From positions 1 to 64,000 of IMG/VR virus record IMGVR_UViG_3300031760_000018: a stretch of DNA of 64,000 nt; one strand, 5' to 3'. A program made the translations under genes and the position numbers. Of this stretch, positions 35,201 to 59,810 are shown one piece after another (within the stretch, counting starts at the first letter, position 1; each line of letters begins with the position of its first letter). Below the pieces are notes generated by a model. It saw nothing but the letters and a program-made list of their open reading frames with translations, was not told the DNA's origin and made no database searches. This DNA is from a virus. Its lineage: Duplodnaviria > Caudoviricetes.

Positions 35201-38200
35201 TGGAACATAATGACCTAAGAAATTATCAGAAATAGACCATCCACCGATCATACCTCTACGAGCAAAAACAGTACCATCAGTTCGTAGCCCAAAAGTGATA
35301 CCATCATTTTCATTACCAGCATAAATGGCAAAATGCCCATACTCTAATTCAATATATTCTTTTAAAGTATTTCCAACAAATTTTTCTCGAATTACTCTGG
35401 TTAAAGGTCCAAGATAAAATTCATTAAGAGTATCTTGATCATTCCAAGCATTTTTTAATAATTTTAATGTCTTTCGATCTTGTTTTGCAACACTCGTCCA
35501 ATCACTTATTCTACTTGGCGCATTTGGATCACCTAAGAAAATAGTACCAAATTTTTCAGAGGTTGTCAATTTTACGCTCTAAGTCATACCATAATCTGTA
35601 ATAAACCAAGGAGAAGTACTACCTATTTTTCCTGCGCGAGCAGTCATATAGCCTCTCCAGTTTACACTAAATAATGGTTTATGATAATCATTTTCTGAAT
35701 ATTCATTTTCCCAATCAGGATAATACCCACAATAAATAGCATATTTATGCTCTTCATCTAAACGATAAAGTTCTTGTAACTATTTTTCATATAACTAATT
35801 TTCTCGATTAATTAAAACCTAAACTGTTGCGTCATATAATGCAGATGATTTTGGAGTAAAGAAACCTGGCCAATGTTCACGCATATAATCCCAGTCAGAT
35901 TGCGGAATAGTATCACGCTCAATAGCTAAGTAGTACATCTCCATTAGCTATTTATAACAATCTTGTAAATAAATTTCATAACCAGCATTACATTCTGTTA
36001 TAATAGTTTCCAATACACTTGCAGTAACACTTTGTCCACTAGAAGTCCAATAAGGATTAATAGTGGCTACTGAAACCGCAGGGTTATGCGCATAAGCTGC
36101 TGAATAAGAATAACGACTACCCTAATTATAACTTTTTGAAGCTACATGAGTAGAATGATTATAAGTATAGCCTAAAATTGGCCCCATTGTGTATTGCCAA
36201 CCAGTACGGTAAACGCCTCTTACTCTACCATCAGAATAATAATGATAGTGATCAGATGCGGCATAAGTTTCTTCATTAAAAATATCTGAAATATTTTCAT
36301 TAATCCAAGTGGTATATGCAGTAGATTCTTGACCATATCCTACATCTTCAAGACATCTTGTTAAATAATTAGCTACTTCAAGATATCCCCAGCCAACATT
36401 CATGTAGTGATATGGATCTAATTCAAATACATCATTTGGTAAATCTCGAACTCCATCATGTACTTGATTTTTTAGCCACTCTAACATTTCAAATAACATT
36501 TCTACAGTTTCATGCAAATTTCGCCCATAAGCATTTAAAGCATCTAATCTTTCTAAGTGTCGAATATGAATACAACGATAAATTGATGCAACTCTAATTG
36601 CACTTATTGCTGAATTATTATATTCATAATCATCTGGTAATTCTGTTTTTCCTTCAGGTAAGCTAGCATTATATGTTGCCATATCAGTAGAACTTAATAA
36701 ATTTTTAGGTCTACCGTCATATTTACTTCTTCTTTCAGGATCTGGCTCTGGATCTATATAAACTTCAACAGGACCTTCATATAAATTACGATAGTGCTAA
36801 ACTACACTAGCATCATCAATCCATCCTCCAGTAATATTATAGCCTAAATACATATAACGACTATTTGGAGGAAGAGTGACACCAGTCTATCCAGGTATAA
36901 CTTCTAAGCCTTCACCAGAAAAATATTGGTACATACCATGCTTACCAATCATCCAGTTACCAATTTTACCATAAGATGCAACGACACCACCAGTAGTAAT
37001 CATGCCATGATTTGGATCTACAACAAAATAATCATGAGTTGGATCATTAAAAAACTTAGATGCCCAACGAGTAGTTTGTTTTAAATCTTCAACATCTTCA
37101 ATAGAAGTTATATCTACACGACGTTTAACTTGCGCGTATAAGAAATATGGAGAATATCCATAATAAGAACCAGGTGTAAATTGGCTATCAGAAGTTTGTG
37201 TAATTGGATCTAAGTTTAAATAACAAGTACGATCATAATTACTAATTAAACTATATTTGCCATTAAAACAAATCTATCCTTTACCTGCTTTTCCAATAAA
37301 ACCAGTAGCGTCATTTTTAAATCCAAATACCTAAACACCAGCATTAAATCCATATAAGCCAGGAATATCAATAGAACCATCATTATGATTGTGCCAATCG
37401 CCCATCATAACGCCACTGAATCTATTATTACTATCTTTAGTACCTGCGCTAATCATTTGCGCCATAATAGCATTATTATCTTCATCAATAGTTAACTGAC
37501 CATCCCATGAATTAATTAAAGAAGAAGGATAAACATTACGACAACATACAATAGCCTAACGATAATAAGATTCTCCTACTTCATATCCTATATAAGTATA
37601 ATAATCAGTATCCATTCCTTCTATCCAAGCCCAAGAAATACGAGGCTTATTAGTAGCAGGATCAATATATGGATCTAAAGTGTATTCAGTATACGCACCG
37701 CGCAATAATCCAGCTCCTTCAAGGATTATATCATAAGCATCTCCTCTAATAAGAGCTTTTTGTTGATTTAATAAAGCAGTATCTTGTCCACTTTGTAACC
37801 AAGCTTCCGCGGCGATTACTTCAAGTTCGTTTAAGTATTCTTCTGCATCATCTAAAGTATATGTTCGAGATTCATCCATTAATGTCCAATTATACTGATA
37901 AGCCATTTCTCTCAAACAATTATTTACTCGTCTAATCGTATTAACTGGCAATTCAATTACTTCATTCGTAGTTAATTGCGCTGCACGAGTACGAGTACTT
38001 ATAAGTCTAAAGAACTCAGGAGTCTCTAAATCTACCCAAGTATCATTTGAAAGACGCTATTTCTATTTTAATTGCCATTCAGGGTACTCATAATTAATTT
38101 CATCATTTAACTAAGACCATTTCTAAAATGGACTAGCCAAATAATTAGGACTCTTACCATCAGATTTAAATTCTACTCTTGAAGGAACAGAATATTGATA

Positions 38201-41200
38201 CTCTCTAACCAAATCTCCCCAGTTATTAGTTAACGTACATGCTTTATAAGCGCTTAAAGTATATGGCGCGCAATTACGCACTTCGACTTTAAAAATAGGC
38301 GGCATTTTATTTCTAACAAAACCAGTAATACCATTTCCTAAATAATTGCCATAAGTTGTAATATTAAGCGTGTCCCATTGAGAATGTTGCCAATCATCTG
38401 GAGAGATAGCTTCTCCGTTGGTCTAAGTAATCGTAGTTGGAGAGAGCAAATACCAATCAAAAATAAATCCCGCGCTTTCTGCTCTGCGGCCAAATCTATC
38501 TCTAACTTCTGCTGCCAATTTAAAACGTTGGCCTTCTTTTAATCCAACTGTTTCAGGTTCTACTTGATGAATAATAATAGTCCATTCTGAACCATCGGTA
38601 CCACTACGGCCAAAGAAAAATTCTTTTTGTACATGGTAAGTATGTCCCATACGAACAATAGTAGCAGCAATAGTATTATTTGTATATCGAACGTCCCAAA
38701 AATTATTTATTCTAAATTTCTATGTTGTTTTATAAACGTACTATTTTTTTAGTTGTTTTAAATCTTCAGAGTCTTCTTCAGTACTCATATCTGCAAGATC
38801 TAACATTTCTATTGCTTCTGCATCTGTAACATCTGATACAGAATGAATCATAGTATAATTACCAGGGAAGTTCCATTTTACAGTAAAATGATCATCTGAT
38901 TCATCATTTACTGTTAATGGAATATAATCATTAGATACTCGATTTTTCATCCAAATTTGAATATACCAATCAATAGTACTATAATCATTATCTGCTTCAT
39001 CTCTAATAACTTTACTCTATTCATCATAAACAAAAAATGCATCTCTACCTTCTTCAACAGCAATATGCCCATCAACATAAGTGCCTTCTGGAGTAACAGT
39101 ATATTGTTTGCGCAAAATCTTAAAAATAAAATCTGCATCAGATACTGCTCCTTCTTCAAGAGTAGTATCTAAATTAGTAAAAGTAATAACATCAGTCATA
39201 CGATGCCCGCCAGGATATTTAACAACTGCGCGGAATCGTTCTGCTAAACGTTCTGGATCAAGTCTAACATTTAATGTAAATTTGTTATAATTTTTTTGTT
39301 CTCCTAATGCTGCCAATTCTTCCATACATAAACGACGAGCATTTTCAATCTTTCCATCCCACTCCATATCAACTTCCATGCGCCAATATGCAGCTTGTCT
39401 TTCATCATATTGATGAGTATCAATTTTTGCTTGAATTAAATCATATTGATTTTGTTTTGCCGCAGTATATTCTTTATAATGTTGTACACATTCTTTATCT
39501 GGAAAGTCTAATAAAAATTCATCAAAGGTATAATTAAATGATTCATAATTATCCATTAATCTAAAATTAGTTCCAGCATATCTTTCTGGTTCATTTGCGC
39601 CATTAATTTCTACATTATAATCATAACGATACCAATATATCTATGCGTTATAAAGTTTTAGCTATTCAGGAGTATTAACTAATACATAAGTATCTCCATC
39701 TCTATGTACCCAAATAAACTACATATGTTTATCTAAATCTAAATCATCTGTATCTGTAATAGTTAATGGATTAGCTCCATAACTAAGTTTATCATAAGTA
39801 TAAATAAAAACTCGTTCATCTTCTACTTCATCGGCAGTCATACCCAATAATACTCTTAATCCACTGATGCGAATATTCGGTTGCTAATCTTTATAAGGAA
39901 TTTCTCTACCAAATTCATCAATAAAATTATGATCTTGCCAAAAGTAAATAGAAATTGATTGAATTTCAAAAAACTTAGAAATATCAAATATAATCTACTG
40001 AGAACGAGGCATTGGATAATTATATGGATTACCATACATCTAATTACTTTTGAAATACAAAGTCTAAGATTTTATCTCTGAAGGGTTATCTTCATTAGCC
40101 AATGTAATTCCAGTAACCTCAATGCGCAATCCATAAGTACCAGACAATGGTGCATACGCACCTAAATAACTTGTCCAATAGGTATCAATGCCCATTTTAG
40201 TACAAACGGTTGCCGCAGACCGAGCACCTTTTTTCCAAGTCCATAATAAATTATGATTTACATCAGAATTCTCTGCATACTAAGCTTGTAAAGCTTGATA
40301 TTCAGCTTCTCGCTCTTGATCTAAAGCAGCATATTTCTCTTCAATTTTTTTCTTAGCGGCTTCATATAAATCAGTTAAACGTTTATACTGAGTCTATCTA
40401 TCTGCTAAACGACTATGCATTTCTTCAACTTCAGTATCATTCCAATATTGCTTCCATAAATTCCCCAATATTCCTGCGCGCTCACTATCATTAAATACAA
40501 CAGAAGCTTGAAAAATAGCTTGCTATACTGCATCTAATGTCCACATAGGAATATCCGCAACATTAGAAGGACGAGCAACTTTAAAAATAGTCTACCACTT
40601 ATTCTATACTTGCGCCAAAGTCCAATCAGTATCATCTTCTGAATGAACACTATTGGCACCTGCAACAATAACATCTGCCAAACAAGGTTTCGCAGGAGGT
40701 AAATATTCTGCATCAGATTTTAATTTAGGATCTAATGCAATTTCAATATTCTTTGCATCTTCTCCGGCAGAACCAATAACATTACCTTGACTATCAACCA
40801 AACCTTCAATTTGTCGTTGATAATTACTTGTTAATGTTGCTAATTCTCTTGCTTTATTTGCAAACTATAAATTCCATTTAGTTGTTAATGCTGCCATAGC
40901 TTGAGTATAAGCTGGATCAGCAGAAAGCTCTTTACCATCTTCTGGGTCATTAGCTTTATATCCTCTTGGCAAAGTTGGCGCGGAATTGCCAGTTAAATCT
41001 TCAAAAGTAATGAAGTTCTATAATGGAGTAGTGTATGTAAAAGGATAAGATTCTCCACCTTCCGCATTAATTTTACGACCGATAATAAACTTCTGTTTAC
41101 TATAGTCACCAGAAGGAATATTTACATAAACTTCTTCTCCTACATGATACTCATTTCCATTTATAGAGTACGCTTCAAAAACCGTATGCTCTGTAGTAAC

Positions 41201-41344
41201 GACGTAGAGGTCTTGCTATTTATTTGCATCCGATTTTATTACGCCTTCAATAGTTTGGTCATATTTTAATTCTTGAATCTTAGAATCGGTTATCATAGAC
41301 ACAGCCTAAAATAGCTGATCAGTAAGTTCATTAGTAGTAGCCAA
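32228..41344 (-). CDS. Giant tail-tip / central spike protein, ~3038 aa
   Basis: TTG start 9 nt after AAAGGAG. Eleven ORF-track pieces from 40604-40801 to 32228-32521 share one frame, ending at TAA 32228. The N-terminus has 'YHVGEEVYVNIPSGD..KFIIGRK'. It also has 'SAGTKDSNNRFSGVMMGDW', repeated 'G.IG.W.I' motifs and a coiled coil near 33900-34600. It lies directly after the TMP. Confidence 0.75.
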
Positions 41345-41369
41345 ACTATTCATCTCCTTTTTCTCTACA

Positions 41370-41457: not shown

Positions 41458-44400
41458 TTATCGACGATTTGCATATTGTGCCGCACGATTAATAAGATCA
41501 TCAAATGCCGCACTAATTTCATCACGATTCTCTGCGTTAGGAAATTCTGCATGAATTTCTACATTTTGTTGCATTTCACTTTGATTGCTTGTAACGGAAC
41601 CTGCCGTAATACCTCCAAATGTGGATAACATTGCCACTGTTGTCATTTGTAACGTATTCAAAATGTCTTTTACTAAATTAGAATCTAAAGATGCAACTTG
41701 TTCAACAGCATTAAACATTTTTTCAGTATCTTTAGCGTTTAATATATACTCTGGTTTATTACGAGTTCCATCTAACCAAGCAGGTCCAGTGAAATCAGCA
41801 AGACCGCCCTCTTCATATTCAGTATAATTTTTAATACGCTTTTTCTTAATCCAATACTTATCTCCACTATTTGCGCCAGAAGTAAATTCAACATAAGCAT
41901 ATCGACCTTCGAATTTGAATACATCAAATTTATCTCCTCGACGGCTACCTCTAATTTTGCGGCCATTCTTATCATGAGTGCTACCCTCATTTAATGAACC
42001 ATGACCTATTGCCCCATTATGATCATCTTGTTGCTGCTATTCTTGCTATTGAGGAGTAGAAGGAGTCTATTCTGGTTCTGGAAGTTCAGTAGGTGTATCT
42101 GGATTTAATGCACCTGTTCCAAATAGATCTAACCATCCACCTTGTTGTAATGAAGCTAATTGTTCAGCCATAGCTTCAATTTCCGCACGAGCTGCAGCAA
42201 TAGCAGCTTGTAAATCATTCCAAGCTTGACTCTATTCATGAACCTGAGAATATAAATCTGCCATATCATCAACTAATTGAGAAGCTGCTTCAGATGCTGC
42301 AGCCATTTCATCATTAGTGTCTCCTAATGTTTCAGTCATACCTTGTAAGCCTGTACCAGTTTCACCAGACACTGCATCAATAGCTAATCTATACGCCTCT
42401 AACGCAGCGATCATATCATCAGAGCTTGCCTTCATTTCAGTCTTTAATGAGCCCCAATTAGTAATCATAGATTGTACATCAAGATTAATTTGATCTGTAA
42501 TTTCAGTATGTTTCTCGCCATAATGATCGAAAATAACTTGCTAATTAGTCATTAAATTACTGGTTGCAATTCCATACTAATCAGAAATCCATTGTAATTT
42601 ATCTGCATATTTTGCATCTAATTCTGCTAATTTTTGAATACGAGTTTCTTCATCATCAGAGAAAGCTAACATAATTTCTTCACGCTTTTGCACATAATCA
42701 GCAATAGTATCAAGATATTGTCCCTCTAATTCTTTTGCCCGTTCAGCAGATGTTTCATTAATCTATTGTAATACGTCTTCATATTTTTGTTGCTTTTCAT
42801 CAATCTTATCTTGGTCTGCAGTATATTGATATCCCATATTGCCATTCTAATCTCTTATAAGTCTTACAGTACTCTTTGCGTTCTTTGCATTTTCTAAATC
42901 ATCCATGGCTAACAATAATTGATATTGTAAATCCATCATCTTAACATCGTATTCAGTTAATTCATTTAATTCAGATTGTTTGTTAATAACTTCTTGTAAA
43001 TTGCGGAAACGTTCTTTACTTGCTTTATTACTTGCATCATTAGCCGCTTTATCAATCTAACGATTCAATTTAGAAACTTCATAAAGTTCTTTAGATGCAG
43101 AAATGTATCTTTCTTGTTCTTCAGTATACCAGCTATAATCATCAACTAAATCTTGGAAAGTCTTATAAGAACCAGTTAATCCACGTTGCCAATCTTCACT
43201 AATACCATGAATTGTATTCTCATACTTATCGCGCAATTTTTGTAATGTCTATTCAGTATATTCAAGCAATTCATCTTGAGCTTCATTCATCGCCTATACA
43301 GCTTCCCAATATTGTCGTTGTTCAAGTTCAGAAAGTTGAGTAATATCTCCGCCGCACTTATTATAAAAATAAGATACTTCATTTGCTTTTGTTTCATACA
43401 TTTCTTTTGCGCGATCAATTAATGTATCATAAGTTGCTAATTCATCTTCAATAATTTGATTCTTAAACCAATAATTTGTTTCTTGTCCCATTAAATCTAA
43501 CATGCTCATAAATTTATCTGCTAAATCTACTCGATGTTTCATAACATTAGTAAATGTAGTCCATTTTTCTTCACTTTGACTTAATAAGTTACTATATGCT
43601 TCTTCAATTTCTTGTTGCTTAGTAAGCATATCATTAAGATATTGTAAAAATTTATCTCGTTCTTCTTTAAGATATTCAAAAAATGTTTGTTCATCAATAT
43701 AATCATCTTTAGTTAGATTTAATTGTTGAAGAATTTGCTGTAAACGAGCTTCCATTTGTTCACCGGTTAAGCCTTCTTGTTCCATTAAATCTAAATAAGG
43801 TTTAATTTTTTCAAGGTAAACTCGATATTTTTGTTCAGCACCCCGCATACCAGTTGTACTAGTTGTACCAACTTCTTCATGAAATTCATCCCATATACGT
43901 TGCATTTGAGTCATTGTAGTTCTCATTTGTTCAGGAATGGTTTTAAATGCATTCCATCCAGTTTTCATTTTTTCTTTAAAATAATCATCAAATTTTTGTA
44001 AAAATTCAATATCGTTAACTTTAAGTTCAACAGCATAAGTAATTTGCTCCATGTTATTCGCAGAGATCTAACTAATCATATCAAGGACTTCATTATAGGC
44101 TTCTCTAATACGATCTAATGCTTCTTCATACTTTTGAATTTGTTCCATTACTTTATCCCATTCTTCGAACCAAGCATCAAATTCACTTTGACGTTTTTCT
44201 TGTGCGTCTGCACTTAGTCTATTCCATTCATCGATTTTCTTATTATAAGCATCAAACATTTTATCTTGATATGCATCAAAATCAATTTCTCCATTTTGAT
44301 CATAAGTTGGTTCAAATCCTAATTTAAATGTTCCACTTCTAAGATTCCCATCTTCATCTGTATATTCATATTTACGACCAGATTTCATAAAATCTTGTAA

Positions 44401-47400
44401 TATTTTTTTATCTTGTTGTGCGTATTTTAATGCTTCTTTAGCTTTCTATCCCTATAATTTAATTTGTTTTTCAAGTTGTTTATTTTCTGCTTTAAGAGCA
44501 TTTAAATAATCAGAACCATATTTCATATCTTTTAATTTTTGAATACGCTCTAATTTATTTTGTTGCGCGCCTAATGTACGATCAGTTTGATGATATCGTT
44601 CTTTTTCTCGATTATCTTTATGTACTTTATCTCTTCTTCGACGCTCTCTTCCTCCACCTTTATTATGCGCAAGAATAGAATTTTTACCAACATAATAATT
44701 GTGATTATTAGATACTTCAAAATTAAATACTGGTAAAACTTTAAATTCAATACCGATATTTAAAATTTTATGCCAAGTTCCATTAGCAAATAAAACTTCA
44801 TCATTAATTTGTAATTCAGATGCAGCAATCCATTTTATGTGATTTTGTCGTTTTATATAAAATCTATGAATGCCAGTTACAATTAATTCATCGTCTTCAA
44901 TAAATAAAGTGTAAATTGGCTCAATAACTATATGGATCATAGTCTATTGAACTTTACTATATTCATTTCTTTTTAATTGCTCATTATATGATAAAACAAT
45001 ATCTCCTATTTGAATATCTTCAATATTTTTATAAGCATTTTGCATTTTAATTAAAGTGCCTGCGGCGAAACATCCTCCTCCGCCGCCTCCTTTATTATGA
45101 GCTAAAATTCGATTTAATCCAACATAATAATTATGATTATTTAACACTTCAAAATTATATACCTATATTTTCTAAACTTCAAAAGAAATATAATTAATCT
45201 AATGCCAAGTCCCATTTGCAAACATAACCATATCATTTTGACGTAATTCAAATACGGGTAACCACTGAATGATTTCATTTCGATTAATTAAAAATCTATG
45301 AATTCCTGTTACTTGAAGCTTTTCTGTTCCAATATATAATGTATAAATTTTTTCATTAACTATATGAATCATAGTCTAAACTACTTCATCATATTCATTT
45401 TGTTGTGTTTGTTCATTATATGATAAAACAACATCTCCTTTTTGAATATTTTCTATTTTTTTATATCCATTAATTGTAGCAACTAAAGTACCCGCAACAA
45501 AACAACCTCCGCCACCGCCAGGACGAGTACCTGTACCTTCTGGAAATTTTGGTACACTAACAACAGTTTGACCATCACCAGTTAATTCACCTTCTGCAGT
45601 TCCTGTTGCAGTACTTCCATTTGGAATTGAAACAGTAACTGTAGAATTCATTGGCATATCAATAGAGTTTTCTCCCTATACATCTTCCATAGTAGGCTCT
45701 CCAGGAGGAATAACTGTATAAGTAATAGTTCCTTCTTGATCTAAACATTCAGTAATCGCGTCAGGATTTTCAATTAAATATTCAACAGGTATTTCAATTC
45801 CTTGAGCTGCTGCAGCATCAGATATAGCCTAAAAATCCATACTTTGACCTAAAGCCGCTGCGCCTTCTGCATTAGTTGCAACATATTGATAAGCATCGCC
45901 AACTTTTTGAACTTGCATTCCCATATCTGCCAAAACAGTATTAGCGTCTTCTAAACTATCAAATTGAGCAACATAATCTGCTGCACTCATTACTGCTCGC
46001 TAAGTAGCATCATAAGCAATACCCATAGTATCTGCTAAACTACTCATTTCTTTATTTGTTAATCCTAAAGACTTTTGCATTTGTAGTAACTATGAAATAT
46101 CATCTCGTTTTAATTTTTCACCAAATTTTAAACCATTTCCAATTTTATTTAATGCTTCTAATTCTTTTGCACACTAAGCTGCACTTTTACCAAATTTTGC
46201 CATCATTTTATCTAATTGCTAACTTAAAATGGCTTTTTCAACTTTTTCCATAGCTTCTATTGATCCTTTTGCCCATTCTTTAATATCTTCTAAATTATCT
46301 TTTACAAACTAAGTATCAACTGCTCCATCTAAATCGTTAAAATAATTATTAACAGCATCTCTCAAAGATTCATAAGCAGTGGTCTGCTATTCTAAAGTAG
46401 ATGTTGAACTTTCTAAAATAGCAAAAGCTCCAGAAGTAGCTTTTAATGCAGCTTCTAATGCCTAAACAGCCTAAGTACATTTATCATATTCAACCGCAGC
46501 ATTTGCCATTAATACAGGATTTTCTGCATTCATTTGATTAAATGACTCTGTTGTACCTTCAGTAGTAGCCAAAGCTTCTTCATACTCCTGTAATTCTTGA
46601 CGAGTTTTGCCTAAAGCTTCAGCTGCATTATTTAAAGCAACTTGAGTATTATCGGTTAAAGACTATAAATTTTGCTAAGCTGCTTGAATAGTTGCATCAG
46701 CAGTAGTCTAAATACTCTAAACAGCTTCTTCAGAAATAATTTTTGCAACTTCACCTGTATCCATTCTTGCTTCATCTGCGGCCATTGGAGCTTCTTCTGT
46801 TTCAGTTCTCGCAGTGCTTTTATCAACACTAACTTTTTTACCATACTAATCAGTACCTTCTCCAATTTGTGCTTTAGTCTACTCTGCAACTAATGCTTTC
46901 TATTCTTCTACTAACTAAGTTTGGTCTAAATAATTCTAATGTACTTGCGCAGCTAAATCTGCATTTGAGGCTCCTAAAGCCTATAAACGTTCCCATTCCT
47001 AAGCTGTAAAAATTCCTTCTGTGCTTTGTCCTTTAACTCCGAATGCTTTTTCATTTTTTATACTCATAGCTTTTTGTAATAATTCCGCATCTCCCTATTG
47101 CCACTAACTATTATAAGCTTGTAATAAACTTGCCATATCTGTAAATTCTTGTCCATTAAATTTTACTGTTTGCTATAAAGCTCCTCCAGTAACTCGCTAT
47201 TCCATATTTGTTCCATTTTGTTCAATCTATTTATTTTTATAATATTCTGGTGCTGCAATTACTGCAGCGAGAGCTTCTTGCCAATCACGATCACTGAATA
47301 TTCCTTTAATTGATTCTTTTTTAGCTATTTGTTCTCCAGTTGCTTTATTTGTAATAGTTTTAGCTTCTTTATCAACAGCATATCCAGCTTTATCTAATAA

Positions 47401-50400
47401 TGCTACAGTTTTATCCGTCATACCTTCAACAAATTCTGCGATTGAACCTGCATTACCAAACAAATTATCTACAACATCTTGCTAAAAAATTTCAAGTCCT
47501 TTTTCTCCACTATATCGATCAGATTCTTGTAATGCAGTACCTGCTTCATTCCAATTTGCAAATCCAGCTAAACCTCTTGCAGATGTAGCCATATCTCTTG
47601 CAGTTACTACATCAGGAGATAAACCAGATATATTTTCTTGCGCTTCTTTCCCTCTACTACTAATAAATTCAGAAAATTCTTCTGCTGTAGTCGAACCGGA
47701 TGCAATAAAAGCATTAATATAGTCATCTATACTTTTTAAACCTTGAGATAATGATTTACCGCTAAAAGCAGCTTCATGCATCGCAGCAATAGTTTCGAAA
47801 GTACTTGTCCATATTGCTAATACTTCAGATGCAGCAGCCTATTCTGCTCCAACTATAGAACTAATTGAACTAGACCAATTATCTTCAAGAGATGTAACCA
47901 CTTCAGCAAGAATTTCTTTTGCATCATCACCTGCTTGTTGACATGCCTCAATAAAAGCATTCCAATAAGTAGTCGCATCTGCGCCAGATCCTATTTCATT
48001 TATTGCCGTATTAAAAGCTTCTTTCATTGCATTTTGTACATTTGCCGGCAATGAACTGAAACCAGGCTTACTTAAAATTTCTTGGAAAGCTTTAGCTGCA
48101 TCATTACCATTCGCTTCTAAAGCAGATTTCCAATTTATAATAAAAGTATCTGCTAAGCCTCTTGCCTAACGAGGATCTGTAATTACGGATAAACCAGGTA
48201 CATTTTCTAATCCTAATGCTCCAGCATTTTTCGCACTTAAATAATCAATTTGTTTTAAAGCTTCTTGTGCTTGTGCTTGTGCAGCAACTTTTGCTCGTGC
48301 CTATATTTTATCTCCTTCACTCTTATTAGCTTCTTCCCATTTATCAGTTAATCCCATCTAAGATAATTTACGAGCAGTAGCAGTCCCAATTTGTCCTTTT
48401 TCTAATGCTTGCATTAATTCTTCGCCAGCACCTGCAATTTTATTATATTCTTTTTCTAATTTAGTTGCTTCCCTAGTGGCGCGTGCCATTGCGGCAGATA
48501 TATTAACTCCAAGTTCAATAGCATCAGTTGATAACCCTTGCTAAGCTGTTTTAGCTTTTTGCATTCCTGTAACATAATCATTAAAAAACCCCATTAATTT
48601 TTCGTCGCCCTCTGCCCATGCTCGCTATTCGTCAGTTAAAGTAGATAACCATTCATCATATGTCATTGTCTCAGTAATATTATCAAACATATTAGAAGAA
48701 TATCCATTATTTCCTGCACTATATGTTTGCATCTATTCTTTATAGCTAGCAACTAATGCATCTTGTGAATTTTTTAATTCAGCCATTACAGATTTATACT
48801 ATTCAGCAGTTCTTATCATCGTAGGATCTTTACCTACCGCTAATAACTATTGAGCTGTTTCTGCAGTTAATTGACCCGTTTTTAAGAAAGATTCATAATT
48901 ATCATGCATAGTTTGACTTAATGAAACCTATGAATTTAAACGCTCCTAAGTTCGATCCATAGCACTCATTTGTTTATTTAATTTACGTTGTTCTTCATCT
49001 TCTTCAGCTTTATCTCCCTATCCTGTCATTTGTGCAGCATTCTAATTTGCCGCCCTTGCTTTTCTCATCATTTGATTATACTAACTATTCCAATCATCTC
49101 TCTAAGCTTGTTTTTCTTCTTCAGTAGCATAAGCCTCTAATTCTTTGTCCGCTTGAGCCTACCAATGATTCGCTTCCTCAATATATTGCTATGCAGCATC
49201 ATCATAAAATTGTCTAATACTAGCTCCAGCTGCTTGTGCGATTTCTGTTTCAGTTAACCCTTGTGTAGCAGCATATGTTTGCCAATCTTGAGTTTTATTA
49301 CTTGCAGCATAAGAACTTACCACATTAGCAATACGACTTTTTTGACCGACTTCATCTTCAAATTTAGCAGCTCCTTTTTGCGCTTCAGCCATACGTTCTG
49401 CACTTTGTGCGGCTTCTAAAGCTGCTTGGCCAAAAGCTGATAAACCTTCTTCTGTATTTTCTAATGCCGCAGATAATTCAGTTATTGCATCTGCTTGACC
49501 AGATAAAGCTGCGCTAATTAATTCTTGAGCACTTTGATATTCACTACCTTCTTTTGGTGTCCAACCTGCTTCTGATAAAGTATTTTCCCAAGTTGAAGTT
49601 AAAAATTGATCCATAGTATCTTTGTTAACTGTAGCTCCACTAATTTCTCCATTAGTAATTCCTTCAAGGAATTCTTCCGAGCTATATTCTTTTCCATTAT
49701 ATTCAATTTTGCCTTCTTTAGTTGTTTCCATTTTTGCATCAGCACGATACGTTAATCCTGCTTGCTATGCAGTTTTATAACGAACATAATCCATACCTGT
49801 ATATGTACCAGACTCATCGCCTATTCTAGCATGAGTGTCAGGTAAATAATCTAAACCAAGACGAGTTCGTTCAGCTTTCATCCAAGAGTCAACCATATTC
49901 TCATATGAATACATATCATTATTTAATTGACCTTGACGTGCCATTGATAAGAAATTTTCTACAGTACCATTTGCATTTGATTGTTTATATCCTTGCCACA
50001 TAGCTAATGCTTGTTGCTTATTCGCGGCAATCATATCAATTTGATTAGATCCACTTGCAATACCAGAACGTATTGATTTAATCTAATTAAATGCATTAGT
50101 CCATGCTGTTGCAACTGCCTATGCTGCATTTTGTTCTAAAGATAACTATGTAGAAATAATAGAGCTCATTGAAGTACCAAATTCAGTAGCTAAATCAGTA
50201 AGAGATATTTCTGCCGAGTTAGCCGCTTCTGTTAAAGCCTATATGAAATTATCTCGGATTGTTTCTGCACTATCTCCAGCATTAATTGTTACTTGTGACC
50301 AAGCATTCTACATTACTTCTTGAAGATCTGCATCTTCAATTCCAGCAATCCATTCTTCTACCTAAGTTGAAATTTGTTCTGTACTATCTCCATGAAAAAT

Positions 50401-53400
50401 ATCGTATAAAGGCATTCCATGCTCATCATATTTCTACAATGAATGAATTTGATTAATACCTTCAGTTACATTTTGTATAGTAGATTCATACTATTTAGCC
50501 TATCCAGCGAATCCAGTCATTGTCATTTTAGATACAGCATTAAAACGCTATTCTGCAGTTGTTGCTCCTTCCCAAGCTGTCATAATACCTTCAGTGTTAA
50601 TACCAGCTTGTTTAGCTAAAGTTAAATATTTCTGTAACGCATTCTAAGATTCCTATGATAAAATTCCAGTTTTCGCATCTGCAGCTAATGATGTAGCTAA
50701 ATCACTTCGAGCTTTTTCAGCATTCGCAGTCCGTTCTTTTTCTAAATTATTTAATTTAGTTTGAGCTTCAATTTGTGCTTTATAATAAGCCGCAGTAGTT
50801 TGATAAGATTTATCAGTTGCATTCTATTTATTATTTTCCGCTGCAACAATTTTTTCTTCATTTGCAATTACTTGATTCTACCAATAAATATATTGTGCTC
50901 GTGCTTCATCAGTATCTAAAGAATCAAAATCTCCCATAGCATCTAATTGACTTTGCGCATAATTTTTTAAATCAGAATATTGTTGTATTTGTTGATCATA
51001 AAAAGCTTGAGATAATTCAGTTTGTGCATGAACTTTATCTATATATGAACTACTTCCTGCAGTTAATGTTTCAAAAGCAGAAGTAACACTTTCATCTCCT
51101 AAAGCAGTAACTGCATCATATAAATTTTCATACGCCTAAGTTCCTTGCTCAGGAATAGTTGCTAAATTACTTAAATCAATATTTGATAAAACAGACAAAC
51201 CCTCTGTAGTATTTTGTAGCTATGTATTCATTGTATTTTGTTTATCAGTATATTCAGTAACTGCCATTGTATAATTTTCTAAACGAGCAATGGCCTCATC
51301 AGCTTCATCTAAAGCAGTTTGAGAAACAACCTATTTACTCATAATTGCATTTTTACTACGAGTATAATATTCTGCAGTCATTGGCTATTCTAATGCCGCA
51401 TCATTTAATGCCTGTAATTCTTGTTGTTGGCGTTCTGCAGTTGTCATATTTGCACGCTATTGTTTCATTTGAGCTAATAAAAACTACTATCTTGACTATT
51501 TAGATTCCCAATTTATTCCTTCTTGATCCTATAATTGCTAATAAGTTAAACCCGTATTATCCATTAACGTTTGCCAATCTTTTGTTTCTAAATTATCTTT
51601 AGAAATTAATCCACTTAAATTTGTTAGTTTTTCTGAAGATCGTAATTCTCTAGTAGTAGATACCGCAGAAGTATCCATTGTCTAAATTTCTGTTAATCCA
51701 TCAGCCATATCAGCAGTAAAATAATCTTGAGCACGCAATCTACTTTCAAAACTGTCTAATGTAGCTAAATCATTTCGTATTTGCGCAGCTCTATTTTCAT
51801 CTGCGGTAATTAATTCAGTTTGTAACTCTTCTCTTTTCTCTTGAATTCCATTATATAAATTTGTTAAAGATTCTGGTGTTGTCTCTGCATCAAATACAAC
51901 CTTATCTGCATTTGATTCACTAATTGACTAATAAGCTTTTGGTTTCCCATCTTCCCCAACTAAAGTTCTAAGAAGTTTACCATCCAATAAACCACTACGA
52001 GCAATATCTCCATAAGTAGCTTTTAAATCTTCATATACCTCTTCTTGCCATTGTTTTTCATTTTCTTCCATAATAGTTTGATATTGTGATAATCCTTGCG
52101 CTTGAGCTTCTGTTCGAACTTCATTCATCTATGAAGCCATTAATTGTAACATTTCTTGCTAATGTACTGCATCACTATTAATAAATTCATCCCATTTGCT
52201 CTCATATAATTCAGCATCATTTATACTGCCTTTTTGACCGCTATAAAAAGACTAAAATAAAGACTAAGCTGCACTTTTATTTTCTGCCTTAGTATCAAAA
52301 GTTCCTACATTTTTATAGACTTCCTAAAATGATTCTTCTGATAAACCAATTAACTAATCCATAATACCAGCCATTGGCGCAGCTAATTTTGAAGCTCGTC
52401 CCATTCTATGAGCTATTTCAGAAGAAGTAGCCTATTCTTCTAATCCTAACCCACTTAAATCAGTTAAATTACCTAAAATTTCTATAGCATTTGGTCCTAA
52501 AGCTTCTTCAATCTCATTAGCCCGCTATCTTCCATAACGAGTTTCAATTATAGATAAATTAGAACTGCCTGCAACATAATGCCGATTTGCAGCACCTTCT
52601 GTTAATCCATTGCTACTTAAATACCCACTAATAGCACTTCTAACTGCATTTTTACTATCAATATTTGGATTATAGTATCCTTGTTCTGATAATGTACGAA
52701 TTACCTCTGCTTCTACTTCTTGCGGAGAAGAACTAGCATTAACTTTTAATGCAGACATTATAGCTGGTACCTGAGTCTAAATATTAGCTGTTCGTTGTTC
52801 TTTTAATACTCCTCCAAAATTATTAGCAATTTCTGCTAAATCTGCAAAACCACCTTTAGTATATAGTTCATATAATTCGCCACCACTTTGACGCATCTAT
52901 TCCAAACCTTCATAAAATTTTATATGTCCTTCTGTTGTATTAGGTATATATAAATCGTCTCCCTTTACAGTAACACCTAAAACTTGAGACATAAAATCTT
53001 CATAAGAACTATAATCTTTGCCATGATATAATTGTTGGAATTTTTCTCGACCACTAGTAAATCCTGGCAAAACCATAGAAGACAGTTCATTAACTGATGC
53101 ACCACCAACTAAAATATCTTCATTACCAGTATTCGTTACCTATAATTGTCCATTGGTATTATCAACAGTAATTTCTCCACCTTTTAAACCAAATATGCCA
53201 GTTCCTCCTGGATTAATAGCATTCATAATATCATCAAATGTCCATGAACTTACATCATTTGTAACAGGATTATTAAAATTACCATATTCTGTATACATTT
53301 GAGTTAAAAGAGATTTAGCCCAACTTCCTCCACCCCAACCAGTATCTCCATCATCAGGAATATACTACAATACTTCATCTAAACCAATAGAAGTAGTGGC

Positions 53401-56400
53401 GCCTGGAGCAAGAGGAGCTTTTCCTGTATCAGTTACAGTATATCCTTCGACATTCAATTTTGCTATTTTCCCTTTTAAAGAACCATATCCTTCAATATTA
53501 TACCCATTAGCAGAGTTTAAAATCGCAGCTTCTGTTTGTCGATAACTCTGACCAATCTAATTTGCATTATACTATAATTTTGCATCTACAGCAGACTATA
53601 TACTTGCTGCTAACTAATCGTAAGAACCACTTAATAAATATACTTTTGAACTTTCATCTTCTAAAGCAGATAAAATTGAATCTACTGCTCCAGTATAATC
53701 CGCAGTAATTTCCCCTGTTTTTTTACGTTCTTCATTTGCTTTTTTAAATGCGGCATAACTTTCATTAATTGAATCAGTTTCCTATTTAATAGACTATACT
53801 TCTTCAGCTTTATTTTTAGCTATTTTTTGCTATAATTCAGAAGATTCCTTTAATTTTTGTTCAGCTTTTTCAGTTGCGGCAATTGAATAAGCTGCAACTC
53901 CAGCTAAAGCTATCATTATTAAAGAAATCCAACCAAAAGCAGCTTGAATACTAAAACCAGCAGTTGTACCTGCCGCCTAAATCGCTTTAAATGCCTATAC
54001 TCCTAATGTAGCTACTGGTACAATAGCCATTCCAATACTCGTAATTTTAGAACTTAAATCCATTTTATCAAAATTCTTTACTATATTTGACATTCTCTAA
54101 AATAACATTACACTTTGCATCATAGATTTAGCCATAAGCTAAAAATTCTAACTACTATTAGAAGAATTATCTTTAATATTATTTAATCTTTTATCAAAAT
54201 CTTGTAATCCAACATTTACAGTAATAGTTGCCTACCCTAATTCTTGAGCATGTTGAGCAATATTACTAAAAACCGCTGATAAAGTGTCACTTCCGCTAGA
54301 CCCTATAATTCTTTCTTGAGCTTGCGAATATCCTTGTAATGATTGCACAATTCCATCAACTGCATTAACATCTTTTTCGGCAACCGTATGATTCGCCGCA
54401 AATTCAGCATTTAAAGTTCGAATTTGTGCAGCTTGCTATCCAAAATCTGCTGCATCTAAATGATTTGCAAATATATCCATTGCTTTAGTCGCCGCAGAAG
54501 TATCGTCAACAGTACTCCCTAAAGCGTGCTATAAAGCTGCAAGTGCGTCATTTCCACTACCTAATGCAGTATTTAAAGTTTGGACACTACGAGTATATCC
54601 TTCTGCAGTTCCATCCTATAAACGAAAAACATCCTAAACAGTATAAGATTCAGTTTTTTGAATATCATTGCCTTTTCGATCAGTAAATGTTACCGGAATT
54701 TGTAAGGTATCATTTTGCTAAACAGATGTATTTAATCTATCTAACATAGTTTTTCCTTCCATTTTTGTCGTTTCTAATAATTTTTCTCCTTGAGTAGAAG
54801 CTTTTTCCATGGCATGAGTTATATCTCCATACGCTGTTTTCTACTCTTGTAAATTTTGTAACATTTCTCCTTGCGACTATAATTGAGTTTGAGCATAATC
54901 AATTTCTCTTTGACTCATATGAGAACTATTTTTTATTAAAGACTATCTTTTTTCAATTAATTTATTGCTTCGATCTAAAACTTCATTTTGTAAAGTTGCA
55001 TAAGAATCTTTACTATCTTGAGACCAAATTTGTTCACGAATATCTCCTCCGATAAATTCTCGAGCACGCTCATTTCCTGCTTTTAAATCTTTTAAATTTT
55101 GTTCATATTGTTGCATTTCTGTAGATGTAATAGAAGCAAAACTACCTAAAAGTCCTTTTCCTCCAACTATGCCTTCTTTAAATTGAATGGTTTTATTAAT
55201 TAATGAATCAAAACCTGCACCAATTTCTCCAGAAAATTTAGATACAAATAAAGATGAAACTGTTGTAACAATACCAGATAATCCACCTAATGAATCTGTT
55301 AAAGTTGTAATTCCATTGGTTAAAGTAGTTAAACCTTCTGTCCAGGCTTTTAATGCCTAATCATCAATTAAAGAACTATATAATTCTTCTTTTGCTGCCT
55401 AAAAACGCTTTTTTGAAGCTTCTAAACCTTTTTCATATTGTCCAAATTGTTTATCTAAAGTTCCCTGAGAAGATTCTGCTGTTTTTAAATTCTATTCATA
55501 TTTATCTGCGTTTGACATTAAAGCCATAATAGTTGTATACTGTCTTGCGCCACCAATTAACTAAGCAGTTGCATTCTATTGAGCAGTAGATAAAGTTTTC
55601 CATTTACCCATCAATTCTGTTATTACAGAACCCATATTGCGCAATTCACCTTGGGCATCTAAAACATTAATTCCAATAGATTTTAATCCAGCAGAATATT
55701 TATTTAAATCCACTCCATCTTCTAATGTTTTACCTAATTTTAAACCTCCAATACGACTTAAAATAGTCTACATAGAAGTACCAATAGATTCTGCAGACTA
55801 ACGAGTAGTAGAAGATACGGTTGCAATCATAGCAGACATTTGTTCTACATTAACTCCAACAACATTAGCTGTAGCCGCAACTTTTTCCATTGCTGTCATA
55901 ATTTCTTCTGAAGAAGTTGCAGTACTTTCACCCAATGCTGCCATAACATCAACATAACGTTGTAATTCTGATTCGCCTACATTATATGAATTCCAAACCG
56001 CAGTTAGCATTTGAGACATCTCTTTCGCACTAGCACTAAATGCAGTCGCCGCAGCTTTTGTAGTAATTTCTGCTTTTTTTGCTGCTTGTTCAGCAGTATT
56101 GCCCTATTGATAATAAATTAAAGAAGCATCTGCATAAGCTTTTGTTGTAGTAGATAAAGACTATGCTGCTTTATTTGCTTGTTCAGCAAATTTTGCCATC
56201 TCTGCAGTAGACTATCCAGTAACAACTGAAATATTAGTTAATGTTTTATTTAAATTTTCAACGTAAGAAACCGCTCCCTACATTGTACCCTAAATACCAT
56301 GAACTAACTAAGAAGATAATTGCCATTTAACGGTATTTTTTAAAGTTGTTAAAGCAGAAGCTAAAGTACCATTTAATTTTTTAATTGGCGCGTCTGCTGT

Positions 56401-56742
56401 AGCTATAGAAGTAGATAATTTAGAAAACGCAGCTGCACCAGTATTACCTGCTAATAATAACTAATTAGTTAAATCAGTTAAAGATTGTTTAGACTATTTT
56501 AAACTGGCATTAAATGCAGACATATCTAATTTACCAGAAGTAGGATTAGTGGCTTTAGATAAATGATTAGAAATTTCTTTTGCTGCATTTGCTGCAGCTA
56601 CCAAATCTCTATTTAATCCTTCTCCAAATAAACCTTGCTATTGAACAGTTTTTAAACTATTCTATAATTCTGCGATTGCAGCTTTTGCCTAACTAGTATC
56701 AGCTGTTACGCCGATATTATACTATCTGGAAGCGCCAGCCAT
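41458..56742 (-). CDS. Tail tape measure protein, ~5094 aa, with two internal Hint domains (TAG=Gln)
   Basis: GAAAGGAG, then ATG at 56742. Fifteen ORF-track pieces share this frame and spot-checked gaps contain only TAG. The N-terminus has TP901-type TMP motifs: 'LTNISVVTG..EMAKFAEQANKAA..LSTTTKAYADASLIYYQ(Q)G' and 'AESIGTS..TILSRI'. A hydrophobic stretch 'FGWISLIMIALAGVAAYSI' lies near 53900. The body is Ala/Gln/Glu-rich and helical, and the C-terminus has 'GGLADFTGPAWLDG..KPEYILNA'. Confidence 0.88.
44662..45072 (-). other. Hint (intein-like) domain 2 in the TMP, 137 aa
   Basis: It starts CFAAGTLI and has block B 'VTGIHRF' (TxxH), block F 'VFNFEVSNNHNYYV' and block G 'ILAHN'. It is followed by KGGG. 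Confidence 0.92.
45094..45504 (-). other. Hint (intein-like) domain 1 in the TMP, 137 aa
   Basis: It starts CFVAGTLV after GGGGG and has 'VTGIHRF', 'VYNFEVLNNHNYYV' and 'ILAHN'. It is followed by KGGGGGG and contains four in-frame TAGs. Confidence 0.92.
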
Positions 56743-56764
56743 ATACATAACTCCTTTCTCTCAT

Positions 56765-57387: not shown

Positions 57388-58701
57388 TTACCCCAATTCT
57401 GCTAGTAATTCATCTGCAGTGCGTTCTAAATAATCTATTATTTGTTTATTACCCTAAGCAATTTTTGCTTTTGCTATATCGGCTTCTAAATACTAATCAA
57501 TATATTCTTTTATTTGAGATTGATCTTCAATAGATACTCGCAATGTATCTAAAAGCCCATTAGCTAAATTATAAACTGACTATAAACTAGCAATATCAAC
57601 CTATTGATTTCGACCAAGCATACTTTTAACCTATGTTTGATTAACATCGCCTTGTGCCCACCATATAGCTTTACCTAAAGATTGCCCAAAAATGCCATGC
57701 AATTCTTCCATTGTAGAAGCTGCGTTAGGATCCTAACTAGTGGCCTATATAACTCTTTCTAAAGATTCCATAATATGACCTCTATTATAGCTTAATGCAA
57801 TATTGTACGTATTTCCTTTTTTACTTAATTGAGTAGACTTAATTTTAGGCATTGGCCCAGTACCTTTATAAAAATCCATAATCATATTATCTATATTAGG
57901 AGTTGTGAATAATGTTCCTAAATCAATAGCACGTGTTTCTAAATGTGTTTGGAATAATTTCCGTAATTGTTGTACTTGATTTTCTCGTTCTTGTCCTAAT
58001 TTTTGTTTATGCCGTATTTCTTCTAATTGATTTAATTTTTCTAGTAATCTTTGTAACTATTCTGCTCGTTCTTTCATACGATTTAACGCATCTTGTGATA
58101 ACATGCCTATCTAATCTTTATAATTTTGTAAATTAAAATTTTCATCTTGAACACCAATTTGTTTAACAATACCTTTAGTAAATCTTAAATTTACCATCTA
58201 TCCCCCTCTGGTAGTTTTCACCAATCTACTTTCATTTCCAGATAATTGCCCCCAAGCTTCCAAATCAGCTTGACTAACTATAGAACGAATAATTGTAGAT
58301 TGATTTCCATCTCCAGTAGTTAAAAATACTGCATAATCTAATGTTTCTGAATCTGGAGCTAACGCTCCTAAAATATTATGCTCTAAAAAAAATAATCTCT
58401 ATGTTAATGATTCTATACTACTTTTCATAGAAGCTTGTTCTACTTGTGTAGATAACTAATACATTATAGATTGATTATCTATTAAATGTTCAAAAGCAGC
58501 TTGATCGCCACCTGCCGCAAATTTATGTCTATTATCTAATTTAAGATAAACAGATTTAATTTCTGCAACCAATGACTATAAATCAGAATAATATCCCTAT
58601 AGTTGTGGTAATTTTTTAGAGGATAATGACTAAAATAATTGCTAAGCAACTTCTGGTTTTAACTCTCGTAAAAATGCACTAATATCAATGCCTAAATCCA
58701 T
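57388..58701 (-). CDS. Hypothetical protein, 437 aa, with a possible PD-(D/E)xK nuclease-like C-terminal region (absent from the ORF track)
   Basis: I translated it codon by codon. It is open from ATG 58701 to TAA 57388 with 16 TAGs and no TAA or TGA. It contains 'YNRGHIMESLER...WWAQGDVNQT(Q)VKS'. Confidence 0.75.
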
Positions 58702-58772: not shown

Positions 58773-59810
58773 TCAGCCTTCGTTGCCACCACGAACAACA
58801 GCACCGAACAAGTCCTTGTCCTCAACAATCTGAAGAGCGGCAATAACTTTCTTGGTCTTATCAAACTTAGTGTAATCTGGGAAAGCGTCCATTGTGAAGG
58901 TGAAGGTAGAAGGATCACCAGTAGGAGCCATAGTGAAGGTAAAGTTAGACTGTACCTTGCAATTAGGAATAATGAACTCTGCAGGATAATCTTCACCAGT
59001 AGCCTGATCACGGAACAAGGTAGAAGCCTCAAGATAGTAAGATCCACCAAACTTAGAAGCCTCAATATCAATCTGCTTTGCGCCAGAAGTTGCTTCTACA
59101 TAATAGTCAACATATACAACAGAACCCTGATCGTCAGAATCTGCGGCACCAGTCAAATATACACCATTAGTACCAGTGAAAGCATTCTTCTCAGCTTCAG
59201 TTGCAACTCCAGTAGGAGCTTCAACAGCAGTAAGAACCTGAGCAGCAATCAACTCTGCGTGACGTACATCACTATTATACTCAGTTGCCCAAGCAGCAAA
59301 AGCACCATTATCTCCACCAAGAGCGAGTTTAAGATCATCGCTAAGGTTACCAATAACGGCAGTAGGCATCTTCATAGGAAGCTGGTTAACATCAATAGAA
59401 CCATCTTCAGTCATAAGCATAATATACATTTCACCTTTGGTAGAAGGCTTCTTAGAAAGAGTAATAGTATCATTCTTTACTTCAACAGTCTCAGTTGTAT
59501 GAACGTAAATAGGAGCGCCTTCTTCTGCATCAATAAATCCAGCACCAGAAAGAATAGAGAAACTCTCTGGACTAATCAAAGCATCTTCCATAGTGAAGGT
59601 AACAGTACGGTCACCTTCCCAAGCAACCAAGCGTGGGTTACCTTTGCCGCCCTGAGCGTAAACAGTGGTAGCCTGACCTTCCAAACTAGAGGTCTTCAAA
59701 GTATCGAAATAAAGAACTGGCATTCCCTTATCAAGATAAAGCTTACCAAAATAACCTGCGGCCTTCTTCTTGAAAACGACGTCGCAAATTTCGCGTACAC
59801 CAAATTTCAT
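58773..59810 (-). CDS. Major tail (tube) protein, 345 aa
   Basis: AGGAGG RBS, TGA stop, no TAG. Motifs 'LKTSSLEGQATTVYAQGGKGNPRLVAWEGDRTVTFTMEDAL' and 'IPNCKVQSNFTFTMAPTGDPSTFTFTMDA'. It lies between the head-completion genes and the TMP. Confidence 0.85.
   Translation of the reverse strand: MKFGVREICDVVFKKKAAGYFGKLYLDKGMPVLYFDTLKTSSLEGQATTVYAQGGKGNPRLVAWEGDRTVTFTMEDALISPESFSILSGAGFIDAEEGAPIYVHTTETVEVKNDTITLSKKPSTKGEMYIMLMTEDGSIDVNQLPMKMPTAVIGNLSDDLKLALGGDNGAFAAWATEYNSDVRHAELIAAQVLTAVEAPTGVATEAEKNAFTGTNGVYLTGAADSDDQGSVVYVDYYVEATSGAKQIDIEASKFGGSYYLEASTLFRDQATGEDYPAEFIIPNCKVQSNFTFTMAPTGDPSTFTFTMDAFPDYTKFDKTKKVIAALQIVEDKDLFGAVVRGGNEG

Follow-up and report, generated by a model that had tools for sequence, protein, structure and literature searches.

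Self-processing domains of the Hint fold have been described in several settings, four of which are close to the element considered here. The type-A bacterial intein-like (BIL) domains, such as that of C. thermocellum (PDB 2LWY), are placed in the variable regions of non-conserved proteins, have Cys1, the Thr-x-x-His, and a terminal His-Asn, and lack both a nucleophile at the +1 position and an endonuclease. In the ciliate Tetrahymena thermophila, the BIL2 domain of BUBL1 (PDB 6Y75/6TMM) lies between repeated units with ubiquitin-like flanks, where the N-flank ends in Gly, and a lysine of the folded C-flank acts as the nucleophile, giving rise to an isopeptide bond (PMC8616854). The polymorphic-toxin Hints (PT-HINT, PF07591) are found just upstream of C-terminal modules that act on another cell, while the canonical inteins of phages (bioRxiv 10.1101/2025.01.02.630785) are inserted in structural and replication proteins of phages at conserved sites, with occupied and empty alleles, a +1 nucleophile of class 1 or 3, and often an endonuclease. 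Here, we describe a tandem pair of Hint domains in the tape measure protein (TMP) of a tailed virus, on a stretch of 64,000 nucleotides (the window) that covers positions 1 to 64,000 of the 98-kb IMG/VR virus record IMGVR_UViG_3300031760_000018, the completeness of which is estimated at 57%. Judging by the comparison of homologous proteins, this pair is one state (out of zero, one, two, or three copies) of an insert that is polymorphic and widespread among giant TMPs, where it occupies the hinge.

An earlier reading of this DNA, made from its letters alone (the sequence-only reading), had proposed two intein-like domains separated and followed by lysine and glycine, and the string that it quoted is present exactly in the TMP, as TRPGGGGG/CFVAGT...TGIH...RILAHN/KGGGGGG/CFAAGT...TGIH...SILAHN/KGGGRERRRR, where the slashes mark the domain boundaries. 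As claimed, both domains are exactly 137 amino acids (aa) in length, have Cys1, the Thr-x-x-His of block B, the His of block F, and a terminal His-Asn, and are followed by a non-canonical lysine at +1. Each is only 137 aa long, which leaves no room for a homing-endonuclease insert, again in agreement with the earlier claim. The two copies align without gaps, with 62% identity in the amino acids and 71% in the nucleotides. The sizes of the parts outside the pair had been given as approximately 3746 and 1067 aa; the second value is correct, whereas the N-terminal part is in fact 3748 aa long.

The assignment of the pair to a family is based on both sequence and structure, with matches well above those that chance would give. 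The PT-HINT profile matches two stretches of the TMP (E = 5e-30, 105 bits against a cut-off of 27.7), and both copies are above the cut-off in a scan of the genome. In a phmmer search of the PDB, the best match is 2LWY, with E = 2e-13, an end-to-end alignment, 30% identity, and a similar length (137-138 aa). The AlphaFold2 model of the pair (pLDDT of 91) also recovers 2LWY as the top match in Foldseek (TMt 0.91, rmsd 1.5 Å), followed by BUBL1 BIL2 (E = 3e-9, TMt of approximately 0.80, 26% identity), and then by canonical inteins and Hedgehog. By every sequence and structure criterion examined, both Hints belong to the type-A BIL/PT-HINT family, as the resemblance noted in the earlier reading had suggested, and not to the canonical inteins. 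The locus nevertheless differs from each of its counterparts. Unlike the 2LWY-type BILs, the Hints are found in a phage TMP, always with Lys at +1, and as zero to three copies in tandem at a single, fixed hinge. Unlike BUBL1 BIL2, they belong to a phage and have disordered linkers and a lysine directly at +1. They share with PT-HINT a position just ahead of a C-terminal module, although this module is the C-terminal end of the TMP rather than a toxin domain, and the +1 residue is variable in the wider family. With the canonical phage inteins they have in common the Hint fold, the insertion in a phage protein, and the occupied and empty alleles, while the +1 nucleophile, the class 1 or 3 chemistry, the endonuclease, and the conserved site are all absent.

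The host protein is read in a recoded context. Under the standard code, stop codons interrupt the region around the gene on both strands, while the reading of TAG as glutamine (Gln, Q) yields a single open reading frame (ORF) of 5096 aa with 142 in-frame TAG codons (Table 1). Homology confirms that this ORF is a phage TMP, in support of the earlier placement of the pair, through the PhageMin_Tail domain (PF10145), the TMP families of PHROG at both ends, and the synteny of the tail genes. The first 1000 aa match the N-terminal positions of the PHROG profiles, and the last 1067 aa the C-terminal positions, as in phrog_34405 (2675 positions), where the two parts fall at 76-508 and 1994-2336, and phrog_4211 (2625 positions), at 482-955 and 2503-2608. 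In a Pfam search with 3736 aa of the N-terminal part, PF10145 was the sole match, and the N-flank is of low complexity. The virion genes upstream of the TMP are 50-79% identical to their counterparts in a relative, in the same order, and the products of this relative bear the labels YomU_Tube, YomV, and YomW, a synteny that points to a siphovirus tail module of the SPbeta type as the context of the TMP. These labels were taken by BLAST against the called genes of the relative, for which they had been precomputed; Pfam returned no match for the genes that neighbor the TMP in the window.

Misassembly, which the sequence-only reading had named as a possible source of the pair, can be discarded. 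The region is spanned, with one difference, by an independent Logan contig of 31 kb, the run of which may be the source sample. In two other studies, contigs of 94-97% identity run across Hint2 and the linker into part of Hint1 (X2, 44143-45152; X3, 44507-45213). The strain represented by X3, from another study of the bovine gut, has one Gly codon fewer at 45073-45075, and the Gly6 linker is thus polymorphic in length. DNA nearly identical to the window is present in bovine-gut metagenomes. Short joints in the layout of the reads, such as 44676>45122, were considered as deletion alleles and rejected, given that they are matches of 20-40 bases from the Hints of other phages, and the contigs from an RNA library (X4, approximately 90% identity) were rejected as evidence of transcription, since they derive from a relative.

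Proteins related to this TMP are numerous. A search that was limited to giant proteins (2802-8918 aa) recovered 141 matches, and among the 120 listed, PF07591 is found in all and PF10145 in nearly all. A profile built from the two copies of the window recognizes one Hint in 89 giant TMPs, two in 27, and three in 5. The proposal that a tandem pair in a TMP had gone undescribed is thus borne out in one respect, in that no description of Hint or BIL domains of this kind in TMPs was found in the full-text literature, where the nearest report is a preprint in which TMPs figure among the proteins that host canonical inteins in actinobacteriophages (bioRxiv 10.1101/2025.01.02.630785). It does not hold in another, given that the window is not unique, and more than 120 giant TMPs from metagenomes carry 1-3 Hints. 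What is new is the TMP as the host protein, the fixed hinge site, the polymorphism of 0-3 copies, and the absolute +1 Lys.

The Hints of the hinge are uniform in their essential features. Those listed all start with CF..(G)T and end with (A/V)HN, and lysine occupies the +1 position in every copy, while the residue that precedes the domain is Gly or Ser in nearly all cases, and Arg or Lys in a few. They are embedded in linkers rich in Gly, Lys, and Arg, and the last copy is followed by approximately 1000-1400 aa of TMP in nearly all the proteins. In a comparison of 156 full-length TMP Hints, with a median pairwise identity of 59% and a minimum of 43%, the residues C1, F2, T6, T66, H69, W81, N117, E119, H124-N-Y, H136, and N137 are invariant; the catalytic residues together with the +1 Lys are invariant in 156-157 TMP copies. 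Some of the phages that carry these Hints read TGA as Trp instead of TAG as Gln, which indicates that the layout spans different genetic codes. Among related phages with giant TMPs, L004 and L005 use TAG as Gln, and L006 and L007 use TGA as Trp, with a YomU-type tube gene recorded in L004 and L007. In the window itself, 5 of the 18 Gln codons of the Hints are TAG, a frequency similar to that of the host gene, and the GC3 is equal to that of the rest of the gene, so that the Hints are old residents of this recoded genome and are translated under its code.

Two of the proteins, P0036 (aa 3117-3265) and P0040 (aa 3132-3280), carry an additional, divergent Hint approximately 113 aa before the C-terminus, besides the Hint of the hinge, and this copy marks a second insertion site, near the end that binds the tip. 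Among the phage records of INPHARED, no TMP matched; 68 records matched at less than 40% identity, and the ones listed are either inteins in helicase or RNR genes or proteins of Ruminococcus phages that lack an annotation. Phages of the Heliusvirales with cultured hosts (L001, Ruminococcus phage NatCom_3870, PV036417.1) have up to three places that match the Hints, at approximately 31% identity, in proteins that carry no annotation and fall outside the size of a TMP.

The lysine at +1 is also enriched in relatives outside the TMPs, where it is found in 74% of the Hints that precede another Hint, 51% of those with long tails, and approximately 24% of those with short tails, against a background Lys frequency of 6.4%. 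Among the 33 Hints that end no more than 12 aa from the C-terminus of the protein, 16 have Lys at +2 and 8 have it at +1, and recoded stops may have truncated some of these ORFs. Arrays of 2-7 Hints with HN-K-G(G)-CF junctions occur in a number of non-TMP proteins (P0125, P0184, P0137, P0248, P0176, P0123, and P0127), which makes the Lys-linked tandem array of BILs a general layout. The arrangements include a leader of approximately 25 aa followed by 3-4 Hints and a Tim44-like domain, a subtilase-PKD protein with four Hints, and Listeria-Bacteroides repeats with two C-terminal Hints.

The sequence-only reading had also pointed to the comparison of occupied and empty alleles at the linker, and these alleles exist. 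A search with the C-terminal module alone recovered the two-Hint protein P0007 first, and then 119 giant TMPs with PF10145 in which the profile built here found no Hint at E-values up to 10. Among these Hint-less TMPs, the closest show 30-33% identity across 98-99% of the C-terminal module. In most of those examined, the homologous point, which a conserved (K/E)ERYH motif follows after approximately 15-25 aa, holds an uninterrupted G(n)-[S]K linker, while the three closest have a linker rich in Pro, Arg, and Glu in its place. The Hints therefore lie in a disordered hinge that the relatives encode as one continuous chain. A syntenic relative, with a tube gene 65% identical and other tail genes 50-79% identical to those of the window, also encodes a TMP with no Hint.

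Changes in the number of copies are frequent. In a tree of the C-terminal modules, the window and P0007 are nearest to the Hint-less P0262-P0264, the presence or absence of Hints has changed at least 9 times (at least 3 of them forced by well-supported branches), and the copy number at least 28 times. Tandem Hints are almost never the closest relatives of each other, and match instead by position across related proteins (P0001_1 with P0007_1, and P0001_2 with P0007_2). Three pairs of nearly identical TMPs, P0022/P0112, P0021/P0114, and P0014/P0094, differ by a clean insertion or deletion of exactly one Hint unit between otherwise conserved flanks. In P0022/P0112, for example, the allele without the unit reads ...KGKGGK-G7..., while the occupied one would read ...KGKKGKS-KGGK-G8... 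if the unit were excised and the flanks rejoined, so that the empty allele closely resembles the predicted product. No close pair of alleles with zero and one Hint was found in the sets searched, where the best such pair is approximately 40% identical, and the close pairs show only changes between one and two copies. Stand-alone genes for the C-terminal module, as would be expected of a split TMP, were represented by three weak matches among proteins of 586-1866 aa, of which only the 8000 candidates that share most words were scored. In evolution, each Hint acts as an optional unit, easily gained and lost, within a range of 0-3 copies.

Recombination is involved in this process. The closely related proteins P0020 and P0116 differ by one Hint unit; the Hint that they share and the whole of the downstream sequence are approximately 95% identical, while all of the upstream sequence is unrelated. 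In this pair, a recombination breakpoint falls at the boundary of the Hint, and joins one N-terminal part and its Hint to another Hint and its C-terminal part. The conserved DNA of the Hints sits at the junctions where the modules of the TMP are exchanged.

The Hints are far more conserved than the protein around them, with a median identity of 61%, while the 700 aa beside them reach 26%; in 99% of the pairs, the higher conservation is that of the Hint. For one pair with available DNA, L006/L007, it was possible to estimate the rates of substitution. The Hint has a dS of 0.33, a dN of 0.012, and a dN/dS of 0.037; the PhageMin_Tail domain has a dS of 0.32, a dN of 0.018, and a dN/dS of 0.055, and the rest of the TMP has a dS of 0.6-0.9, a dN of 0.24-1.14, and a dN/dS of 0.4-1.2. 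By these estimates, the purifying selection on the whole Hint is as strong as that on the core PhageMin_Tail domain, and in this pair the two were inherited together. Recent horizontal transfer was considered as the cause of the conservation of the Hints and rejected, given that the dS of the Hint equals that of PhageMin_Tail in this one pair; strong purifying selection explains the conservation, and transfer is not required. Selection of this type shows that the putative autoprocessing activity matters, and would fit either a useful device or a parasite obliged to excise itself from a protein that the phage cannot do without.

From the family, the fold, the catalytic residues, the +1 Lys, the hinge site, the alleles, and the selection described above, we infer the outcome of the reaction. 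The Hints would be active type-A BIL/PT-HINT autoprocessing domains in the disordered, Gly/Lys/Arg-rich hinge of a giant TMP of an SPbeta-like phage, where this hinge separates the long N-terminal ruler part from the conserved C-terminal module of approximately 1000 aa. After translation, Cys1 and the block B Thr-x-x-His would convert the peptide bond between Gly(-1) and Cys1 to a thioester. The terminal Asn would then cyclize, with the help of the penultimate His, and free a C-flank that starts with the invariant Lys. An amine of this Lys would attack the thioester, either before the Asn has cyclized, by way of the epsilon-amine (as in BUBL BIL2), or afterwards, by way of the alpha-amine that the cyclization exposes. 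The Hint would be released, leaving the two parts of the TMP linked by a Gly-Lys peptide or isopeptide bond, in a continuous Gly(n)-Lys-Gly(n) hinge similar to that which the Hint-less relatives encode directly. We assign a probability of roughly one half to this reading, in which each Hint cuts itself out and the amine of the +1 Lys serves to reconnect the flanks.

Excision with rejoining is favored because the ruler is continuous in the Hint-less relatives and in the TMP families of PHROG, because a cut made prior to assembly would be expected to detach the conserved N-terminal part from the end that binds the tip, because the number of copies changes freely between nearly identical TMPs, and because this outcome gives the invariant +1 Lys a role. 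The sequence-only reading, which is partly supported, had named three possible outcomes, namely cleavage, a splicing that restores a Gly-Lys-Gly linker, and an attack by Lys to give an isopeptide; the second would yield a linker of the kind seen in the empty alleles (G(n)-[S]K), and the third has a precedent in BUBL BIL2, the second-closest solved structure. A number of points weigh against rejoining. The characterized BILs, including 2LWY, "produce predominantly cleaved products", for want of a +1 nucleophile, and a single mutation turns them into efficient splicers (PMC7664689), while one review considers the A-type BILs unable to ligate their flanks (PMC7765530). The invariant Lys could instead aid the cyclization of the Asn, or be the N-terminus of a released module, and part of the +1 signal may have been inherited from the site, given that basic residues follow the poly-Gly in the empty alleles too. 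The requirement for a continuous ruler is drawn from the Hint-less relatives, and invariant catalytic residues would be expected under cleavage as much as under rejoining. The primary paper on BILs (Dassa 2004) reportedly names both "protein splicing and auto-cleavage" in its title.

The most serious alternative, which we consider possible, if on the whole unlikely, is that the Hints are a built-in cleavage device, in which the hydrolysis of the thioester and the cyclization of the Asn would cut both ends with no rejoining, to produce a ruler part of approximately 3748 aa and a C-terminal module of approximately 1067 aa that starts with Lys. The best Pfam family of the domains, PT-HINT, is annotated for the autoproteolytic release of C-terminal modules, the main products of the characterized BILs, 2LWY among them, are cleaved at the N- or C-end (PMC7664689; PMC7765530), and the Hints are placed exactly at the boundary of the conserved module of approximately 1000 aa. 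The hinge of the Hint-less relatives in the same phage group, by contrast, is part of one continuous TMP, and the variation in copy number between nearly identical proteins also weakens the case. An early cut would probably part the conserved PF10145 region from the tip-binding end and leave a non-functional ruler, and cutting on its own does not explain why the +1 Lys is invariant. Cleavage does mature the TMP in other phages, as in the conversion of gpH to H* in phage lambda, a proteolytic step that depends on assembly and is not, as far as is known, autocatalyzed by an embedded Hint. The processing predicted for the window resembles that of lambda in being post-translational and near the C-terminal part of the TMP.

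Cross-linking is a less plausible outcome, and we regard it as improbable. In this case, an amine of another molecule, such as a second TMP chain, a protein of the tail tip, or the cell wall, would attack the Gly-thioester and form an intermolecular isopeptide bond of the ubiquitin type. BUBL BIL2 does conjugate its N-flank to the lysines of other proteins as well (PMC8616854), and the N-flank of the window ends in a sterically open run of Gly, like the C-terminal end of ubiquitin. No ubiquitin-like or other folded domain is present upstream, however, where Pfam found only PF10145; the conserved Lys is in cis, at +1, which favors an intramolecular reaction, and a stoichiometric link is hard to reconcile with nearly identical TMPs that vary in their number of copies. 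It is very improbable that the domains are canonical class 1 mini-inteins, or inactive relics that serve as structural spacers, even though TIGR01443 (intein_Cterm) scores 28.5 against a cut-off of 15.6 and canonical inteins are listed in actinobacteriophage TMPs (bioRxiv 10.1101/2025.01.02.630785), given that TIGR01445 remains below its cut-off (20.4 against 24.5), the +1 residue is Lys in all the copies, with no Cys, Ser, or Thr at this position, the insertion falls in a disordered and variable Gly/Lys/Arg hinge rather than at a conserved functional or active site, and relics would not hold every catalytic residue invariant at a dN/dS of approximately 0.04.

Excision with rejoining may also be taken one step further, to a proposal that we make only tentatively and consider doubtful. 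The Hints may represent a phage-borne class of splicing, in which the epsilon-amine of the +1 Lys replaces the Cys, Ser, or Thr, and the halves of the ruler are joined by a Gly-Lys isopeptide bond that leaves a free alpha-amine. This would be the counterpart, in the viruses of bacteria, of the BUBL reaction of the ciliates, and would extend to hundreds of gut and rumen phages and to the bacterial HN-K-G-G-CF arrays of up to seven Hints.

The features of the locus are presented in Table 1. Several other aspects of the gene and its surroundings may be recorded here. The TAG codon accounts for 40% of the Gln codons in the N-terminal part of the TMP, against 15% in the C-terminal part, and the ORF of the tail tube has none, while the ORFs beside it carry 1-17. 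Three more giant ORFs (with TAG as Gln) lie downstream of the TMP, all on the minus strand, at 32228-41353 (3041 aa), 11987-20143 (2718 aa), and 1-6150 (at least 2050 aa); the first of these has no Pfam match, and its homologues are found directly after the TMP in the relatives. Just upstream of the TMP, two ORFs of 437 and 205 aa overlap by 26 bases (57388-57413), and the same two genes do not overlap in the relative L004. This position, before the TMP, is the usual place of the tail-assembly chaperones with a programmed frameshift.

Table 1. Coordinates of the tape measure gene, its two Hint domains, and associated features, counted from the first nucleotide of the window.
Feature	Position in protein	Coordinates	Strand	Remarks
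TMP gene	5096 aa (TAG=Gln)	41458..56748	-	Stop of the TAA/TGA type at 41458-41460; PF10145 and PHROG TMP families
PhageMin_Tail (PF10145)	aa 192-398	55555..56175	-	Pfam E = 8e-27
Gly5 run	aa 3744-3748	45505..45519	-	Ends the N-terminal part; Gly is -1 of Hint1
Hint1	aa 3749-3885, 137 aa	45094..45504	-	Cys1, T66-G-I-H69, H124, H136-N137
Inter-Hint linker, Lys-Gly6	Lys3886	45073..45093	-	Lys is +1 of Hint1
Hint2	aa 3893-4029, 137 aa	44662..45072	-	Catalytic set as in Hint1
Lys-Gly3	Lys4030	44650..44661	-	Lys is +1 of Hint2 and starts the C-terminal part; next comes a stretch rich in Arg, Lys, and Glu, as far as the conserved ERYH motif
C-terminal TMP module	aa 4030-5096, 1067 aa	41461..44661	-	Homologous to the C-terminal end of Hint-less giant TMPs; C-terminal positions of PHROG TMP profiles
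Tail tube protein (YomU-type)		58773..59810	-	65% identical to the YomU_Tube gene of a relative with a Hint-less TMP

The significance of these domains depends in part on the outcome of their reaction. If the rejoining through lysine is true, the Hints would be a natural and compact module of 137 aa for splicing or ligation, free of the usual nucleophile and with an unusual product, which would matter for the chemistry of inteins and for protein engineering, and would extend the mechanism of BUBL from the ciliates to the phages. If there is only cleavage, they would represent the first self-contained maturation device in a TMP, and very long tails could be built on a ruler of two pieces. In either case, the Hints are a common and unannotated element of the giant TMPs of gut and rumen phages, including those that recode TAG or TGA.

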